A stretch of DNA of 47,586 bases from assembly GCA_964588145.1 (NCBI GenBank), contig CAZPNL010000003.1, positions 1 through 47,586 on the forward strand, in the 5' to 3' direction. This document shows, one piece after another, positions 9,584-44,425 of the stretch. The translations under genes were made by a program, and so were the position numbers. This DNA is from an uncultured Gammaproteobacteria bacterium (GTDB taxonomy: Bacteria; Patescibacteriota; Microgenomatia; UBA10105; UBA927). Position 1 is the stretch's first letter. Every line of letters starts with the position of its first letter. Below the pieces are notes generated by a model. It had not been told where the DNA came from and made no database searches. It saw only the letters and a list, made by a program, of their open reading frames with translations.

Positions 9584-10896
9584 CTGCTCTCCCACATACA
9601 CCTGGTATATATATCTATCACAATCGCGCTGGTAAAGTGATTTATGTTGGTAAAGCAATAGATTTGTTTAAACGCGTCCATCAGTACTTTCAAAATAGCA
9701 GGATAGAAGGCAAAACTGCTCAGCTCGTCAGTCAAATTCATAGCATAGAAACAAAGCTTGTTGAAAGTGAATTTGAAGCTCTTCTTCTGGAAGCAAAAAC
9801 TATCCGAGAGTATTTGCCAAAGTACAACATTATCGCCAAAGACGACAAGTCACCCATTTACGTCAATATCACCATGAGCGATACACTCCCTAGGCTGGAG
9901 ATGGTCAGAAAGCGAAATCTAGATAGACTAAATACGAGTAACAATCCGTGTTTTGGGCCATTTCCCTCTACAACCTTTTTACGAGGTATCCTCAAACATA
10001 TTCGCACGATCGTCCCTTACTGCACCCAAAAAGAACGTACGGGGAGAGCCTGTTTTTATACGCATATTGGTCTGTGTGACCCATGTCCTTCTCTAATTGC
10101 AAAAATGCCTGAAGGTCCAGAAAAAAGGGAATTGACAAAAAATTATAGACAACATATGCGCCTAATCGTACGCATATTGTCTGGAGAATCTCGCCTCATC
10201 ATTGCTGACTTAGAACGACTGATGGAAAAATTTGCAAAAGCAGAGCTTTTTGAGCAAGCAGCCGACGTAAAAAATCAGCGTGATCATCTGATCAGACTCT
10301 TAGGGAGACGTTTTAACCCTATGACGAGCGGAGTGCGCATGGATCCTGTACAGAGCGTAGGGTCAGAAGAACAAATTGAGGCACTGCAAAAAGTGCTCAG
10401 AGATGCTTATCCAAATATTGAACGACTCGGGCGTATTGAGTGCATGGATATCTCAAACTTTGGCAACACACTAGCGGTTGCGTCGCTTGTGGTGCTCACA
10501 GATGGGATGCCAGATAGCATGTGGTACCGGAGATTTCGCATCAAAACAGTACAGGGACAAAACGACTTTGCCATGATGGGAGAAGTTGTCAAACGCCGGT
10601 TTGCGCATCCGGAGTGGCCATTTCCTGACCTATTTATCGTAGATGGTGGCGCAGGACAAGTGGGGGCTGCCAAAAAAGCGCTTTCAGAGTTGGGAGTGTA
10701 TATTCCGCTTATCGGTCTGGCCAAGCGATACGAGTCCATTGTGATTTCCAATGGAGATGGGTTCAAAACTATCACCCTACCGCTCACGCATAAAGCCATT
10801 GCAGTACTCCAACGTGTCCGTGATGAAGCCCACAGATTTGCAAATGCCTACAGGATGACACTGCAAAAAAAGTTGTTGGGTGTGGGAAAAAGATAA
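9556..10896 (+). CDS. uvrC: Excinuclease ABC subunit C, short form (GIY-YIG + UVR + RNase H-like; no HhH tail)
   Basis: PGIYIY...IYVGKA, FEQAADVKNQ, CMDISN, DLFIVDGG, RDEAHRFA. Confidence 0.9.
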   Translation: MEKTLKETLAALPHTPGIYIYHNRAGKVIYVGKAIDLFKRVHQYFQNSRIEGKTAQLVSQIHSIETKLVESEFEALLLEAKTIREYLPKYNIIAKDDKSPIYVNITMSDTLPRLEMVRKRNLDRLNTSNNPCFGPFPSTTFLRGILKHIRTIVPYCTQKERTGRACFYTHIGLCDPCPSLIAKMPEGPEKRELTKNYRQHMRLIVRILSGESRLIIADLERLMEKFAKAELFEQAADVKNQRDHLIRLLGRRFNPMTSGVRMDPVQSVGSEEQIEALQKVLRDAYPNIERLGRIECMDISNFGNTLAVASLVVLTDGMPDSMWYRRFRIKTVQGQNDFAMMGEVVKRRFAHPEWPFPDLFIVDGGAGQVGAAKKALSELGVYIPLIGLAKRYESIVISNGDGFKTITLPLTHKAIAVLQRVRDEAHRFANAYRMTLQKKLLGVGKR

Positions 10897-27825: not shown

Positions 27826-27949
27826 TAGACGTTCTGGTGGTACCTTTAGTGGTGCAGGATGATGTTTCGTCATCCCGGTGCAGATGTGTGCCGTTATAGT
27901 CAGAGTAATTGATAAATTTTTACAAAATTCATCAATTGCAGAACGTCTA
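27826..27949 (+). ncRNA. Retron ncRNA (msr-msd) candidate
   Basis: Perfect 11-bp inverted repeats TAGACGTTCTG (27826-36) / CAGAACGTCTA (27939-49); G at 27837 right after the stem; three short stem-loops (27840-55, 27857-75, 27876-93); long AT-rich hairpin 27905-27939. Confidence 0.85.
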
Positions 27950-27952
27950 CAC

Positions 27953-28849
27953 ATGGGTATGAATTTCTTTCAAAAACTATTTGACGGTGGACGTGGTTCG
28001 GACATATTGGCACAAAAATTTGGATTCAATCCAGAAATCCTTTCCACTTGGGAACAGGGAAATCCAAATGGTTGTGATTACACTACCTTTCAAATACCCA
28101 AACGTCGCAAAGGTGCATATCGCACTATCACGGCACCAAATCCACCACTCAAGGCATTACAACGCCAAGTGTATAGAAATGTGCTTAAACGACTCCCGGT
28201 ACACCCAGCGTGCACAGGGTTTTCTCCAAAAAAATCAACAGTAGATGCAGCCATGCCCCATGTAGGCAAAGAAGTGGTTATACATATGGATCTCAAAGAT
28301 TTTTTTGATCACATCACCTATGATCGTATTTATAATTATTTTCGTGCGATAGGGTGGGGGAAATATGTCTCTCATATCCTTACAAATATCCTCACAAAAG
28401 ATGGCAAAGCACCACAAGGTGCGCCTACTAGTCCTATGATCTCTAATCTTATCGCATACAAGCTAGATGCTCGCATAAATAGCCTCATGGAGACATTTGA
28501 AGGCTCTTATACACGCTATGCTGATGACATTACGTTATCATTTAGATCAAGCAATATGCATTTCAAAAGCGCACTCCATATAGTATGTACCATTATTAAC
28601 GAAGAAGGTTTCAAAATCCAAAAAGCCAAAAAAATCAAAATCATGCGGCCACATGACAGGCAGGAAGTGCTATCAATCATCGTCAATAAAAAACTCAATG
28701 CGCCGAGAAAAATGCGTAGACTCATACGTGCCATGGAGCATGCTAATAGAATTGGAAAACTCCCATCACATGAATATGCAAAACTGGATGGCTACAAATC
28801 GTACATAAATATGATAAATATGGGACGAGCCAAACCTTCATTACAATGA
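27953..28849 (+). CDS. Retron-type reverse transcriptase (298 aa)
   Basis: IPK...RTITAP, LKALQR, MDLKDFF, PQGAPTSP, YTRYADD; start trimmed to ATG 27953 (or 27959), directly after the ncRNA repeat. Confidence 0.92.
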   Translation: MGMNFFQKLFDGGRGSDILAQKFGFNPEILSTWEQGNPNGCDYTTFQIPKRRKGAYRTITAPNPPLKALQRQVYRNVLKRLPVHPACTGFSPKKSTVDAAMPHVGKEVVIHMDLKDFFDHITYDRIYNYFRAIGWGKYVSHILTNILTKDGKAPQGAPTSPMISNLIAYKLDARINSLMETFEGSYTRYADDITLSFRSSNMHFKSALHIVCTIINEEGFKIQKAKKIKIMRPHDRQEVLSIIVNKKLNAPRKMRRLIRAMEHANRIGKLPSHEYAKLDGYKSYINMINMGRAKPSLQ

Positions 28850-28980: not shown

Positions 28981-30954
28981 CTAAAGTTTCTTACCCATTG
29001 GATAAATAATCTCGTAAATACTAACTTCGGAGTTTGAAAAAACTCTACTAGCGATGGTACTATTTTCAATAATCGGATAATTTGAATTTGAATTGAGATA
29101 AATATATTTAATTTTATTTGCCATCGCCAATCGTACATACGTATCTGGTTGAGCAGACTGAAAAAATTGAAAATAGACCCTGCTTCGTTCTGAAGCTTGA
29201 GGATACCCGTGAGCCTCAGTACTAAATCTTTGTGAATAATACATGGGATGTTGAGAAAACAATCCTACGTATGCTTCTACTTCATCGAGCTTATTTATGG
29301 GATCTACAATAGTTAAATAATTGATATTGGCATAATTCTTTAAATAATGTAATGCTTCAAATTCGAGTGAACTTATATGATTTGGCCGTATAAATATATA
29401 CTCATTCCAATTTACTATATGTGAATATATGCGATTGAGAGTAAATAGACCAATAATAATATAAAACCCAAAACGCAATAAAAAAGGCTTTTGTTTCATG
29501 CCGTAACTAAAAGCCGAAGCGCAATACGGCAAAACTGCATACATTGCAATAAGGATGAATACGGAACTATGATCACCTCCGCTATCTTGTAAAAAGGTAG
29601 TGCCAATAAAAATAGAAATAAGTATAGATGGAATCAGAAAAATATGAAATTCAATAGGAAATTTACCCATAGAATACCTCGTTTGAAATATCCAAAAAGA
29701 GCGTAACAAAAAATATGTAACCAAAAAGATACAGTAGAGCAATGGACCAATGACACTCCCAAGCATAAAAAAGCCAAGGTGAAAATCTACTTTTCCAAAA
29801 CGAGTTACATTATGCACTGACTGTTCCAATATTTGACTTATCTGTGGGTTAAGTTGAGACGAAATCTTCTCTAAGAGGGTTTTCCCGTGCCAAAAACCAG
29901 CAAAATGTATACCTCCAGACCCATGATTGGTAGGCAAATAGAGCGCCAAAGATAAGACTATAGTCAAAATCAATGTTGGAATTCTAACAAACTTTTTTTG
30001 CAAGACAAACCAATACCCTATAAATGCCACCCCCATGCAAAGAAATATACCCGTATGCGCTTTTATGCCCACAGAAGTTGCAATAACAATAATAATGAGA
30101 AATGAAACTATACGAGTGGGCGCTCGTAACCAAAGTACAAGTAGAGATAGTGCTGAAAATATCTGAGGAAGAGACAAGGAGGTAGTAAGATTTGCCCCTA
30201 CGCTGGGATAATTTTGACTAAAATATGCAAAAAATAAAATCCATACTTTGTATGAGTTATTTAGTTGTAATATATTAGCCAAAAGTAAAATATGTGCCCC
30301 ATACATAATCGTCATAAATGGGACGAAATAGTGTGTCAAAGTGTATATAAAAGGTAAATCAAATACGCGTACAAGATCTGCAATTACGAGGTGAGAAAAA
30401 TAGTGATAATTTTGTATATATATGCCAGACATACCAGGAGTAAAGGGTGGCATCTGTTTGAGCAATTGATACAAATGACCCAACTCTCCTACCTGGTTAT
30501 ACGTGGCAAAAGACAATGATCCATCGCGTGTTTGTACTCCCACAAACACTATGACAGTCTCTATGAGAGTAGCTAGTAGTATCAATCCCAACATTAGTAA
30601 TGATACTCTCGTAAAGCGAAATGAAAACGTTGGTAATAATGTTTTACAGCGTATTAACCAGAATATGACACATGCCAAAACATATACATAACTCAAATAT
30701 CTCACTTGAAGCATTCCGAATATATACCCTTGGAGAATCCAGAGTGCTAGTCCAGCGCTGGTTGAAAGTGTTATATTTTGCCACCAGCCAAGTTTGAGCT
30801 TGTGGACAAGTATATTACCAGGGATAGTCATCGAAAAGAGAATAGCAAACCAAAACAGTAGAAAACCCCACCAGAATCTAAAGTCAGAATATGTAAGCAG
30901 CTCAATGGGATAGTGCATGAGGATTTTTTTTGAGGCAGTGTATTGTATACCCAA
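28981..30954 (-). CDS. Large polytopic membrane protein (GT-C-like candidate)
   Basis: 657 aa, many TMs, periplasmic loop PPFTPG...NYHYFSH, soluble C-terminal domain. Confidence 0.6.
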   Translation of the reverse strand: MGIQYTASKKILMHYPIELLTYSDFRFWWGFLLFWFAILFSMTIPGNILVHKLKLGWWQNITLSTSAGLALWILQGYIFGMLQVRYLSYVYVLACVIFWLIRCKTLLPTFSFRFTRVSLLMLGLILLATLIETVIVFVGVQTRDGSLSFATYNQVGELGHLYQLLKQMPPFTPGMSGIYIQNYHYFSHLVIADLVRVFDLPFIYTLTHYFVPFMTIMYGAHILLLANILQLNNSYKVWILFFAYFSQNYPSVGANLTTSLSLPQIFSALSLLVLWLRAPTRIVSFLIIIVIATSVGIKAHTGIFLCMGVAFIGYWFVLQKKFVRIPTLILTIVLSLALYLPTNHGSGGIHFAGFWHGKTLLEKISSQLNPQISQILEQSVHNVTRFGKVDFHLGFFMLGSVIGPLLYCIFLVTYFLLRSFWIFQTRYSMGKFPIEFHIFLIPSILISIFIGTTFLQDSGGDHSSVFILIAMYAVLPYCASAFSYGMKQKPFLLRFGFYIIIGLFTLNRIYSHIVNWNEYIFIRPNHISSLEFEALHYLKNYANINYLTIVDPINKLDEVEAYVGLFSQHPMYYSQRFSTEAHGYPQASERSRVYFQFFQSAQPDTYVRLAMANKIKYIYLNSNSNYPIIENSTIASRVFSNSEVSIYEIIYPMGKKL

Positions 30955-31103
30955 AAAATCATAAATATATATGATTTTTTGAGTATAGACCCATCTAATC
31001 AGCTTTGCTACCTCTTAGAGTTGCAAACCTGAGTAAGATGGGTTTACAATAACATATACCTCTTTATGCCCGAGCTCACAAGTAGGCAATTGAGGCTATA
31101 ATT

Positions 31104-31172
31104 TGCGGGGTCGTTCAATGGTAGGTCCCTTATATTCGCATTCGCTCATATAAGGGATTAAAAACACTTGCC
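31104..31172 (+). pseudogene. 5'-half relic of a tRNA-Gln with hairpin insert after the D-loop
   Basis: TGCGGGGTCGTTCAATGGTAGG + TCCCTTATAT...ATATAAGGGA insert + ACACTTGCC. Confidence 0.75.
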
Positions 31173-31193
31173 ATCTTTGGTCATGTGTGGCGC

Positions 31194-31265
31194 TGCGAGG
31201 TCGTTCAATGGTAGGACACTTGCCTTTGGAGCAAGGTATTCTTGGTTCGAATCCAAGCCTCGCAG
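31194..31265 (+). tRNA. tRNA-Gln(TTG)
   Basis: TGCGAGG/CCTCGCA acceptor, CTTGC-CTTTGGA-GCAAG. Confidence 0.93.
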
Positions 31266-31282
31266 CGCTGCACAGGACAAAT

Positions 31283-31349
31283 AAGGTATTCTTGGTAAGC
31301 CCCGCTTCAATATAAATAAATAATGCGGGGACGAATCCAAGCCCCGCAG
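31283..31349 (+). pseudogene. 3'-half relic of a tRNA-Gln with ~35-nt hairpin in T-loop
   Basis: AAGGTATTCTTGGT + AAGCCCCGC...GCGGGGA + CGAATCCAAGCCCCGCAG. Confidence 0.8.
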
Positions 31350-44246: not shown

Positions 44247-44425
44247 CAAAAAAAAATTAGGAATCGGACAGTTTGGGGGGGTCCGACTATAGTCCCTTGA
44301 ACGGTAGTGAAAGGGGTTCCCCTCATCCGCTCAAAAAAAAATTAGGAATCGGACAGTTTGGGGGGGTCCGACTATAGTCCCTTGAACGGTAGTGAAAGGG
44401 GTTCCCCTCATCCGCTCAAAAAAAT
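44232..44425 (+). repeat. 85-bp tandem repeat carrying tRNA-Gly 3' end with 30-nt T-loop insert
   Basis: TTCCCCTCATCCGCTC starts at 44232, 44317 and 44402. Confidence 0.92.

Follow-up and report, generated by a model that had tools for sequence, protein, structure and literature searches.

A tRNA-Gln gene lodged between the relic halves of an older tRNA-Gln gene in a bacterium of the candidate phyla radiation: a probable scar of in-place gene replacement

Transfer RNA (tRNA) genes are usually held to be among the most stable genes of a genome. This study concerns a tRNA-Gln(UUG) locus at positions 31104-31349 of a 47,586-nucleotide (nt) stretch of DNA, hereafter the window, in which an intact tRNA gene lies between the two halves of an older one; we read it, with a probability of about 0.9, as the scar of an in-place tRNA gene replacement. 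This window spans the first 47.6 kb of contig C3 (CAZPNL010000003.1) of an uncultured bacterium of the candidate phyla radiation (CPR), whose assembly (GCA_964588145.1) comprises 1.55 Mb in 139 contigs with 41% G+C and whose relatives have genomes of 0.6-1.9 Mb. Interrupted tRNA genes are familiar from archaea, where intron-containing, split, and permuted genes yield one functional tRNA through bulge-helix-bulge splicing by a protein endonuclease. The closest described case in function is SegB of phage T4, a free-standing GIY-YIG homing endonuclease encoded in a tRNA cluster, whose 27-bp site has the T-psi-C stem-loop motif at its center and which carries the neighboring tRNA genes along as it spreads (PMC2330249). 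Closest in protein type is Ssn, a group of GIY-YIG enzymes with 94 amino acids (aa) and a single domain, which cleave single-stranded DNA beside their cognate hairpin repeats (NTS/SRM) (PMC11893778). Closest in logic is the tRNA-dependent lysogeny of actinobacteriophages, in which an essential tRNA is disrupted and one of matching isotype is brought in (PMC10865867). The ribosomal RNA (rRNA) genes of CPR bacteria contain many endonuclease-bearing insertions, mostly group-I-like introns with LAGLIDADG enzymes, from which the host gene is rescued by splicing (PMC11270868). Full-text literature searches turned up no account of a tRNA gene nested in another tRNA gene, nor of a GIY-YIG gene nested in one.

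The locus consists of the following features, in which "outer" denotes the interrupted gene and "inner" the intact one:

31104-31125, plus strand: outer tRNA-Gln nt 1-22, TGCGGGGTCGTTCAATGGTAGG, with the 5' acceptor strand TGCGGGG, the D-stem, and the D-loop
31126-31163, plus strand: insert 1, in the D-arm of the relic, a 32-nt perfect palindrome at 31126-31157 (TCCCTTATAT..ATATAAGGGA) followed by TTAAAA
31164-31180, plus strand: outer tRNA-Gln nt 24-37 as aligned to the inner gene, ACACTTGCC, an extra ATC (31173-31175), and TTTGG, with anticodon UUG
31181-31193, plus strand: cassette leader of 13 nt, TCATGTGTGGCGC, of which bases 31184-31193 (TGTGTGGCGC) pair with 31265-31274
31194-31265, plus strand: inner intact tRNA-Gln(UUG), acceptor TGCGAGG/CCTCGCA, discriminator G, CCA not encoded
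31266-31282, plus strand: cassette trailer of 17 nt, CGCTGCACAGGACAAAT, its 5' part in a helix with the leader
31283-31296, plus strand: outer tRNA-Gln nt 41-54, AAGGTATTCTTGGT, with the end of the anticodon stem, the variable loop, the 5' strand of the T-stem, and T54
31297-31331, plus strand: insert 2, in the T-loop of the relic, 35 nt with the hairpin AAGCCCCGC-N19-GCGGGGA (CCCCGC..GCGGGG)
31332-31349, plus strand: outer tRNA-Gln nt 56-73, CGAATCCAAGCCCCGCAG, that is, CGAATCCAAG plus the 3' acceptor strand CCCCGCA and G

The nested layout and its boundaries, first given in a preliminary description made from the letters of this DNA, hold base for base. The inner gene is called tRNA-Gln(ttg) by ARAGORN, scores 62.6 bits against Rfam RF00005 (threshold 29), and is the sole tRNA-Gln(UUG) of the assembly. 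Around it, the first outer piece (22 nt) has one mismatch to the inner gene (G5 for A5) and is identical to working genes of relatives, the piece at 31283-31296 is identical to the inner gene (14/14), and the last piece (18 nt) has one mismatch (C68 for T68) and pairs with 31104-31110. Over the alignable positions there are four differences between the two genes: the G5/C68 versus A5/T68 pair, two substitutions in the 3' strand of the anticodon stem, and one absent T-loop base. Three such co-linear matches (22, 14, and 18 nt) have no comparable counterpart elsewhere in the genome by short-word BLAST. The relic acceptor strands pair with each other (TGCGGGG/CCCCGCA) and the inner strands likewise (TGCGAGG/CCTCGCA), the differences at G5 and C68 being stem partners, as had been pointed out. 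The outer halves meet at the anticodon loop, nt 37 on one side and nt 38-41 on the other, where the last three nucleotides of the trailer (AAT) may be the decayed nt 38-40 of the outer gene; between them lie about 103 nt of foreign DNA, of which only 30 nt are not tRNA. The hairpin insert reported for each relic half is also borne out, since both the D-arm palindrome (-13.5 kcal/mol, z -4.9) and the T-loop hairpin (-11.9 kcal/mol, z -2.3) fold; insert 1 has no second copy in the genome by short-word BLAST. The predicted fold of the whole 246-nt stretch is itself nested, with the outer acceptor closed and then an 18-bp helix made of the inner acceptor plus leader and trailer (-106.6 kcal/mol, z -7.7).

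Such a fold, together with the position of the inserts in loops, as in archaeal multi-intron tRNAs, would suit a functional RNA from which the inserts and the inner tRNA are removed as a new kind of bacterial intervening sequence, or whose outer pieces pair as a two-piece tRNA-like molecule. The abundance of excised insertions in CPR rRNA genes (PMC11270868) and the identity of the outer pieces to the ancestral sequence in one relative (G018) would also fit. We nevertheless consider a functional outer RNA very improbable. With the inserts removed, the outer copy is defective: its anticodon stem reads ATAAG for GCAAG (two mismatches), its anticodon loop has three extra bases (ATC), its T-loop has six bases, and its D-stem is interrupted by insert 1. 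At permissive filters (E<=0.01), the inner tRNA is the sole Rfam tRNA match at the locus (L001), and no Rfam intron model matches there, hence the insert has no group I core. A self-splicing insert would have been detected, because Rfam readily finds the group I intron (RF00028, 85 bits) in the tRNA-fMet of the present genome. To our knowledge, bacteria are without the archaeal splicing endonuclease. The outer halves are also not conserved among nest-bearing relatives, where they decay in different ways: G018 has both halves nearly intact around an inner gene with acceptor TTCGGGA/TCCCGAA; G054 has the same cassette, with an outer 5' half that is without its D-loop and with the T-loop CTCGAAT; in G016 the outer 3' acceptor strand is gone; and G022 keeps the cassette flanks with no outer halves remaining. 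Between G018 and G054 the inner genes vary by structure-preserving changes and the outer pieces by stem-breaking ones, a contrast that indicates one live gene and one dead gene. Judged from these sequences, the outer halves are relics and not functional RNA.

As a separate observation on interrupted tRNA genes, an initiator-like tRNA-Met(CAU) at C39:8024-8345 (minus strand) has its anticodon loop split by a 251-nt group I intron, and its last 17 nt are duplicated about 110 nt downstream, after a CCTGAGC..GTCGAAGG unit. A reading of these units as hammerhead or other ribozymes was rejected: the core does not fit by eye, and Rfam is empty at C11:9100-10400 (E<=0.01).

Comparison with 28 distinct tRNA-Gln(UUG) sequences from the family and its sister family gave the relative age of the two alleles. 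TGCGGGG/CCCCGCA occurs in 8 of the 28, in two families and including both sister-family genomes, whereas TGCGAGG/CCTCGCA is found in the window's inner gene alone. The outer G5:C68 allele is therefore ancestral and the inner A5:U68 derived, the question that the preliminary description had referred to related genomes. With G5:C68 present in working genes of relatives, acceptor strands that pair, and ends that meet at the anticodon loop, the relics form two complementary halves of a single older tRNA-Gln(UUG), as that description had supposed. Relatives carry at least six different tRNA-Gln(UUG) acceptor types. The inner 24-mer was not found in the metagenome collection, and its occurrence in species-representative genomes is limited to two unrelated proteobacterial-type metagenome-assembled genomes (MAGs), a similarity by convergence.

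Relics of this kind are distributed in a polar manner across the genome. For each of 42 tRNAs, with neighboring tRNAs masked, the 5' half was compared with the upstream 300 nt and the 3' half with the downstream 300 nt (score >=24). A gene's own 5' half was found upstream in 10 of 42 cases and its own 3' half downstream in 13 of 42, together involving 21 genes, whereas six controls (5' half downstream, 3' half upstream, and all four combinations on the opposite strand) gave 1, 0, 1, 0, 0, and 0. With 21 of 42 genes positive against controls of 0-1, chance is excluded, and the nest is one case of a genome-wide polar pattern. The most complete further example is a tRNA-Trp(CCA) nest at C21:14650-15100 (minus strand), in which an intact inner gene lies inside a flawless outer cloverleaf split between nt 34 and 35 by 166 nt. 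Its acceptors diverge (outer AGGCTCG/CGAGCCT, inner AGGTCCG/CGGACCT), the insert has inverted repeats at its ends (TCCCAG..CTGGGA), and still farther upstream comes a third layer, a decayed 5' one. Nests are also present at tRNA-Arg, tRNA-Gly, and tRNA-Tyr of the same genome.

Nested tRNA-Gln genes recur in relatives (G018, G054, G012, G016, G023, and G021), in at least six other genera. At the tRNA-Gln locus, G027, G028, G023:C80, and G015 have a plain gene, and G018, G054, G012, and G016 a nest; this presence and absence at orthologous sites is patchy, as it is for the GIY-YIG genes described below. Homologous helix-flanked units lie in a resident with acceptor TGCGGGG and D-stem GTTC/GGAC in G018 and G054, and in a resident with TGCCGGG, D-stem GTGT/ACAC, and T-loop TCCGAAT in G012 and G016; the latter resident type is still a working gene in G041. 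These residents must have been different working alleles at the time of invasion, because dead halves cannot keep two alternative compensated stems, and this speaks for repeated insertion; the tRNA-Trp nest points the same way. Recurrence bears as well on the suspicion that strain variants were stitched together in a MAG of 139 contigs. We give assembly artefact next to no credence: the repeats, at 14-22 nt, are shorter than the k-mers usual in assembly; the leader, trailer, and hairpins, all unique, are consistent with one another; and the same architecture is found in G018, a closed single-contig genome of 1.02 Mb from another genus, and in more than six independent assemblies.

Local duplication requires no mobile element: a tandem triplication, replication slippage, or template switching, followed by deletions, could give a nested look. 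The inner and outer genes are nearly identical here, no donor was found for the inner allele, and tandem copies or partial units do occur in the clade, at tRNA-Gln(CUG) on C28, tRNA-Gly(UCC), tRNA-Glu(CUC), and the two tRNA-Gln(CUG) genes of G021. Random tandem decay, however, predicts 3' pieces upstream as often as 5' pieces, and these were seen in 0 of 42 and 10 of 42 cases, respectively; 5' halves were found downstream once (1/42), and this one is a tandem pseudo-copy. Relic pieces of either half on either side, as in a decayed tandem array, were not observed. The halves of the present relic meet at one position, and the inner flanks are no copies of the outer flanks. In other nests (tRNA-Trp, G018, G012, G016, and G023), the inner and the outer gene represent alleles that have diverged, and the stems of each are compensated. 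Independent tandem duplicates, named in the preliminary description as the finding that would speak against nesting, are thus not what relatives show: the outer halves form a matched pair unlike the inner gene in G018, G012, G023:C84, G021, and the tRNA-Trp locus. We regard local duplication as unlikely, and replacement by insertion as the better account of the locus.

Several partial tandem units were recorded beside these nests. Two exact 85-nt tandem units follow tRNA-Gly(UCC) at window positions 44248-44417, starting inside the 3' end of the tRNA, each consisting of a T-arm with a 30-nt T-loop insert plus the 3' acceptor strand. At C23:2360-2560, a 101-nt unit is duplicated after tRNA-Glu(CUC), again starting inside the tRNA 3' end, just upstream of a GIY-YIG gene. 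At C28:4009-4215, tRNA-Gln(CUG) is followed 21 nt on by a pseudo-copy that is tandem, not nested, with a 40-nt nested hairpin in its D-loop and the T-loop TTTAGAAT.

The flanks of the inner gene, TCATGTGTGGCGC and CGCTGCACAGGACAAAT, have no likeness to those of the outer gene, and leader and trailer pair with each other, lengthening the inner acceptor stem by 10-12 bp. A comparable helix is found at only 1 of the 42 tRNAs of the present genome, the inner tRNA-Gln itself. Over all loci fetched, it occurs in 11 of 54 distinct tRNA-Gln loci and in 0 of 121 other tRNAs, with a length of 10-14 bp (tRNA-Gln loci L001, L017, L025, L037, L041, L083-L087, L092, and L100). The stem sequences vary among tRNA-Gln loci, with some compensatory changes: relative to the G018 type, A:U is replaced by C:G in G012, and C:G by U:A in G016. 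Of the helix cells, 92% pair, compared with 28-60% when the partner strand is slid, which is modest evidence from five sequences; G:U pairs on the sense strand imply that this helix works at the level of RNA or of single-stranded DNA from the sense strand. Such a helix characterizes a class of tRNA-Gln units and not nesting itself. Because the flanks are foreign and the helix type is seen at other tRNA-Gln genes of the family, the inner gene is an inserted cassette and not a local copy with its own flanks. Of the earlier proposal that an intact allele was inserted into, or duplicated inside, its damaged predecessor, insertion therefore stands, in the form of a cassette with foreign flanks; nothing shows prior damage, and the hairpin inserts more likely entered the outer halves after these had become dispensable.

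Small GIY-YIG open reading frames (ORFs) are associated with tRNAs and their relics in this genome and in its relatives. The present genome has 10 such ORFs, four of which adjoin tRNAs: Tyr, Lys(CUU), Glu(CUC), and Ser(GGA). At tRNA-Tyr on C73, nt 1-28 and 36-53 of a relic, with a GC-clamped hairpin between them, are followed by a 78-aa GIY-YIG ORF and then by the complete tRNA; at tRNA-Ser(GGA), in a reading that rests on a partly masked stretch, a hairpin-split pseudo-copy precedes the GIY-YIG ORF. The order at both loci is 5' relic, GIY-YIG, tRNA. Six relatives have 25 small GIY-YIG matches between them, of which 18 are about 125 nt or less from a tRNA and invariably share its strand; tRNA neighborhoods account for about 3% of such genomes. 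In 5 of the 18, the tRNA's own first 15-34 nt are found just upstream of the ORF. Of 81 family genomes, 80 have GIY-YIG matches, with a maximum of 15 in one genome. A GIY-YIG gene sits between tRNA-Phe and tRNA-Gly in G079, G067, G063, and G011 and not in others; in the window a reverse transcriptase (RT) occupies this place.

At tRNA-Gln itself, G004 and G042 have a GIY-YIG ORF immediately upstream of tRNA-Gln(UUG), and in G020 the order is a piece with nt 1-31 of tRNA-Gln(CUG), carrying a hairpin after nt 18, a GIY-YIG ORF, and the complete tRNA. The nest of G021 begins with outer nt 1-22 and hairpins, a GIY-YIG ORF, and a working tRNA-Gln(CUG) with an 11-bp leader-trailer helix, and continues with a middle relic and an outer 3' piece that has a T-loop hairpin between GGT and GAATCC. 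Its breakpoints (after nt 22 and in the T-loop) are the sites of the window's two hairpin inserts. In the tRNA-linked ORFs of the present genome and relatives, PF01541 spans residues 1-76 of proteins of 78-100 aa, typically about 85 aa, with a single domain; the sole other match is a weak one to the NCBIfam N-terminus of group I intron endonucleases. Examples of these tRNA-linked ORFs in the present genome are C73:4643-4878 and C3:54399-54617.

Hairpins occupy the same neighborhoods. The family to which insert 2 belongs has three 89%-identical copies at C11:9414-9754, beside a GIY-YIG gene and inserted at a T-loop look-alike, GAGCTTGT^CGAAGG, and a further copy in the T-loop of a relic of tRNA-Leu. 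The genome has 30 CCCCG..CGGGG hairpins, 17 of them within 500 nt of a tRNA, and the T-loop (GGT^TCGA) is the position at which relics break off and hairpins are inserted most often. At C11:9300-10290, a GIY-YIG gene (9832-10050) lies between composite units resembling repetitive extragenic palindromic (REP) elements, TTGCCTGAGCTTGTCGAAGGCC .. CCCTTCGAC-(variable hairpin)-GCTCAGGGAA, some of which carry further hairpins inserted at GT^CGAA. Clustered regularly interspaced short palindromic repeats (CRISPR) were considered for the C11 hairpins and rejected: the three copies are about 150 nt apart inside REP-like units, with no repeat-spacer array. The published Ssn SRM regular expression has 11 matches in the genome and finds a separate small hairpin family, TGTCATTCCCGTGAAAACGGGAATC, in seven copies (C10:22434-22553, C15:13889, C53:4484, C65:5496, C93:984, and C94:2050); other GC-clamped hairpins do flank GIY-YIG genes.

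Anticodon loops and T-loops are classical integrase crossover sites. The locus might accordingly be the remnant of a prophage or integrative element that disrupted the resident tRNA, carried its own tRNA-Gln, and later lost everything except the essential tRNA, following the logic of tRNA-dependent lysogeny, with a disrupted resident and a supply of the same isotype (PMC10865867). Such a history would have to leave 30 nt of non-tRNA DNA between outer halves that are almost intact, and in the tRNA-Trp nest a perfect outer cloverleaf around 166 nt. The junctions, TTTGG/TCATG and CAAAT/AAGG, share no short common-core repeat, and the 103 nt between the halves contain no integrase or element genes. 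In a genome of 1.5 Mb, about one in two tRNA genes would have to share this history, and where genes do lie between relic and working copy, they are GIY-YIG ORFs of about 85 aa, not integrases. We therefore find a prophage remnant quite improbable. A crossover by a tyrosine integrase in the anticodon loop was considered separately and rejected, the full stem-loop that it predicts at both junctions being absent.

In-place replacement invites comparison with the systems introduced above. As with SegB, GIY-YIG genes are lodged among tRNA genes and breakpoints fall in T-loops; SegB, however, is larger, acts between co-infecting phages, and sits between intact tRNA genes, whereas the ORFs here are about 85 aa, single-domain, chromosomal in CPR bacteria, and inside a tRNA gene beside a spare copy, with cleavage putative and with no ORF in the present nest. 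The likeness to Ssn lies in proteins of about 80-100 aa with the GIY-YIG domain only, in multiple copies, and in hairpin repeats of 20-50 nt, GC-clamped, around genes such as C11:9832-10050. The tRNA-linked ORFs of the genome and its relatives fall under the Ssn definition by size and domain (80-150 aa, GIY-YIG only), and the present locus, having none, does not; the Ssn paper is without any mention of tRNA, and its SRM consensus misses the tRNA-linked hairpins here (PMC11893778). Tyrosine integrase, a whole prophage, and a core of about 10 bp characterize tRNA-dependent lysogeny, in contrast with 103 nt and neither integrase nor core here. Integrative elements likewise leave partial tRNA copies beside an intact gene at att sites, but as one-sided direct repeats, usually of the 3' end, that bound a large element (PMC9897764), whereas complementary halves here enclose only a tRNA. 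Archaeal interrupted tRNA genes are similar in having interruptions at anticodon-loop, D-arm, and T-loop positions and different in that here the interrupted gene decays and the insert is the functional tRNA. The CPR rRNA insertions share the radiation and the habit of selfish insertion into essential, conserved RNA genes, but rescue here is by a spare gene and not by splicing. By analogy, the locus is akin to the known free-standing homing-endonuclease and Ssn-hairpin systems, combined with the logic of bringing one's own tRNA.

The first part of the history can be read from the locus itself. A resident tRNA-Gln(UUG) (TGCGGGG/CCCCGCA), its probable promoter directly upstream, was split when about 103 nt of foreign DNA entered its anticodon loop. 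This insert was a complete, promoterless tRNA-Gln(UUG) with leader and trailer, and the inner gene is now the sole source of tRNA-Gln(UUG); the dead outer halves have gained the D-arm palindrome, the dispersed T-loop hairpin, the 3-nt insertion, and the point changes. Sister loci suggest that the cassette was part of a mobile system with single-domain GIY-YIG nucleases and GC-clamped hairpins. In that system, a nuclease resembling Ssn in size and SegB in its targeting of tRNA genes may nick or break tRNA-gene DNA at loop-coding positions, in the D-arm (about nt 15-23), the anticodon loop (about nt 31-37), and the T-loop (about nt 53-56), and the cassette would be copied in by repair from a carrier allele. 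Only insertions that bring a tRNA for the same acceptor, or its missing part, would survive: nests are always cognate, because each tRNA gene is single-copy and essential. Decay of the nuclease gene is the usual life cycle of homing endonuclease genes, and here too the gene would later decay and be deleted, as at the present locus, while the dead halves would become free landing sites for hairpin elements. The whole nest may be transcribed from the old promoter (TATAAT ending at 31102), with the inner tRNA cut out, and the leader-trailer helix probably aids its release, in the manner of rRNA processing stems. This full mechanism, a promoterless tRNA cassette of a nuclease- and hairpin-linked mobile system whose nuclease has been lost here, we consider somewhat more probable than its negation, and less secure than replacement as such.

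Several observations weigh against this account. The present nest has no nuclease ORF or recognizable remnant of one, and its flanks of 13 and 17 nt are too short to hold any; because of this, the nuclease step at this locus is an extrapolation. The small GIY-YIG proteins have no DNA-binding domain, and their cleavage activity is putative. The SRM matches all lie more than 500 nt from any small GIY-YIG gene and more than 400 nt from any tRNA, and the tRNA-linked hairpins are off the consensus. Scans of metagenomes turned up no close relative, no empty-site allele, and no donor for the inner gene, which is about 97% identical to the outer gene and whose A5:U68 allele was found in no other CPR genome; an origin of the inner gene within the lineage is possible. 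The leader-trailer helix also surrounds un-nested tRNA-Gln genes in G077 and G090 and may be an ordinary feature of some tRNA-Gln genes, not a mark of mobility.

Upstream of the nest lie two promoter-like features:

31075-31102, plus strand: promoter-like site CTCACA-N16-TATAAT, ending 1 nt ahead of the outer gene
31017-31050 (core 31021-31050), plus strand: promoter-like motif TTGCAA-N18-TACAAT with the conserved spacer ACCTGAGTAAGATGGGTT, full motif GTTGCAAACCTGAGTAAGATGGGTTTACAAT

In relatives, TATAAT lies 7-12 nt ahead of tRNA-Gln, and CTCACA-N16-TATAAT probably served the old gene as its own promoter and is now the sole one able to drive the nest. Further copies of GTTGCAAACCTGAGTAAGATGGGTTTACAAT are found at C75:3442-3488, C33:6413-6466, C11:19873-19897, and C1:76966-76995; the motif is present in several copies per genome throughout the family at >=90% identity and may act as a strong promoter or as a regulator site for RNA genes.

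The tRNA-Gln belongs to a Val-Phe-Gly-Gln tRNA cluster. A 657-aa ORF without Pfam domain (28981-30954, minus strand) lies between tRNA-Gly(GCC) and tRNA-Gln, where most relatives have a gap of 10-100 nt, and the RT is a 323-aa ORF (27878-28849; Pfam RVT_1, 1e-26) inserted between tRNA-Phe and tRNA-Gly. Retro-insertion by this RT was considered and set aside: the inner gene has neither a CCA end nor another mark of cDNA, and nest-bearing relatives are without an RT there. Unusual anticodons were noted in the present genome, in tRNA-Ile(UAU) and tRNA-Ser(ACU) at C24:3739-3812 and C7:24644-24731, and in G018 a tRNA with the amber-reading anticodon CUA (L074 1293-1366) lies beside a GIY-YIG/tRNA-Gly(UCC) unit.

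The locus is a partly decayed, nuclease-less example of an overwriting of tRNA genes that is widespread and apparently unpublished. More broadly, and as a tentative proposal to which we would give not quite even odds, CPR bacteria may harbor undescribed minimal promoterless cassettes, each a tRNA in a leader-trailer hairpin with or without an Ssn-like GIY-YIG gene of about 85 aa and its GC-clamped palindromes, that home into loop-coding positions of cognate single-copy tRNA genes; as part of the same proposal, such cassettes would persist by means of a spare copy instead of splicing, drive a rapid turnover of tRNA alleles, and scar about half of tRNA loci. For annotation, relic halves and hairpin-split copies should be left out of gene counts. 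The system may also be a source of compact nucleases, specific for a structure or a site, that are open to bench testing. In these bacteria, tRNA genes have been overwritten in place repeatedly, with debris at about half of the tRNA loci of one reduced genome. If the mechanism with nuclease and cassette holds, it would account for the odd fragments that tRNA scanners return from CPR genomes and would give a natural role to the abundant stand-alone GIY-YIG mini-nucleases and hairpins. It would also mean that selfish elements resident in essential RNA genes, known to splice out or to rebuild the gene at an att site, have a third option, that of carrying a spare.

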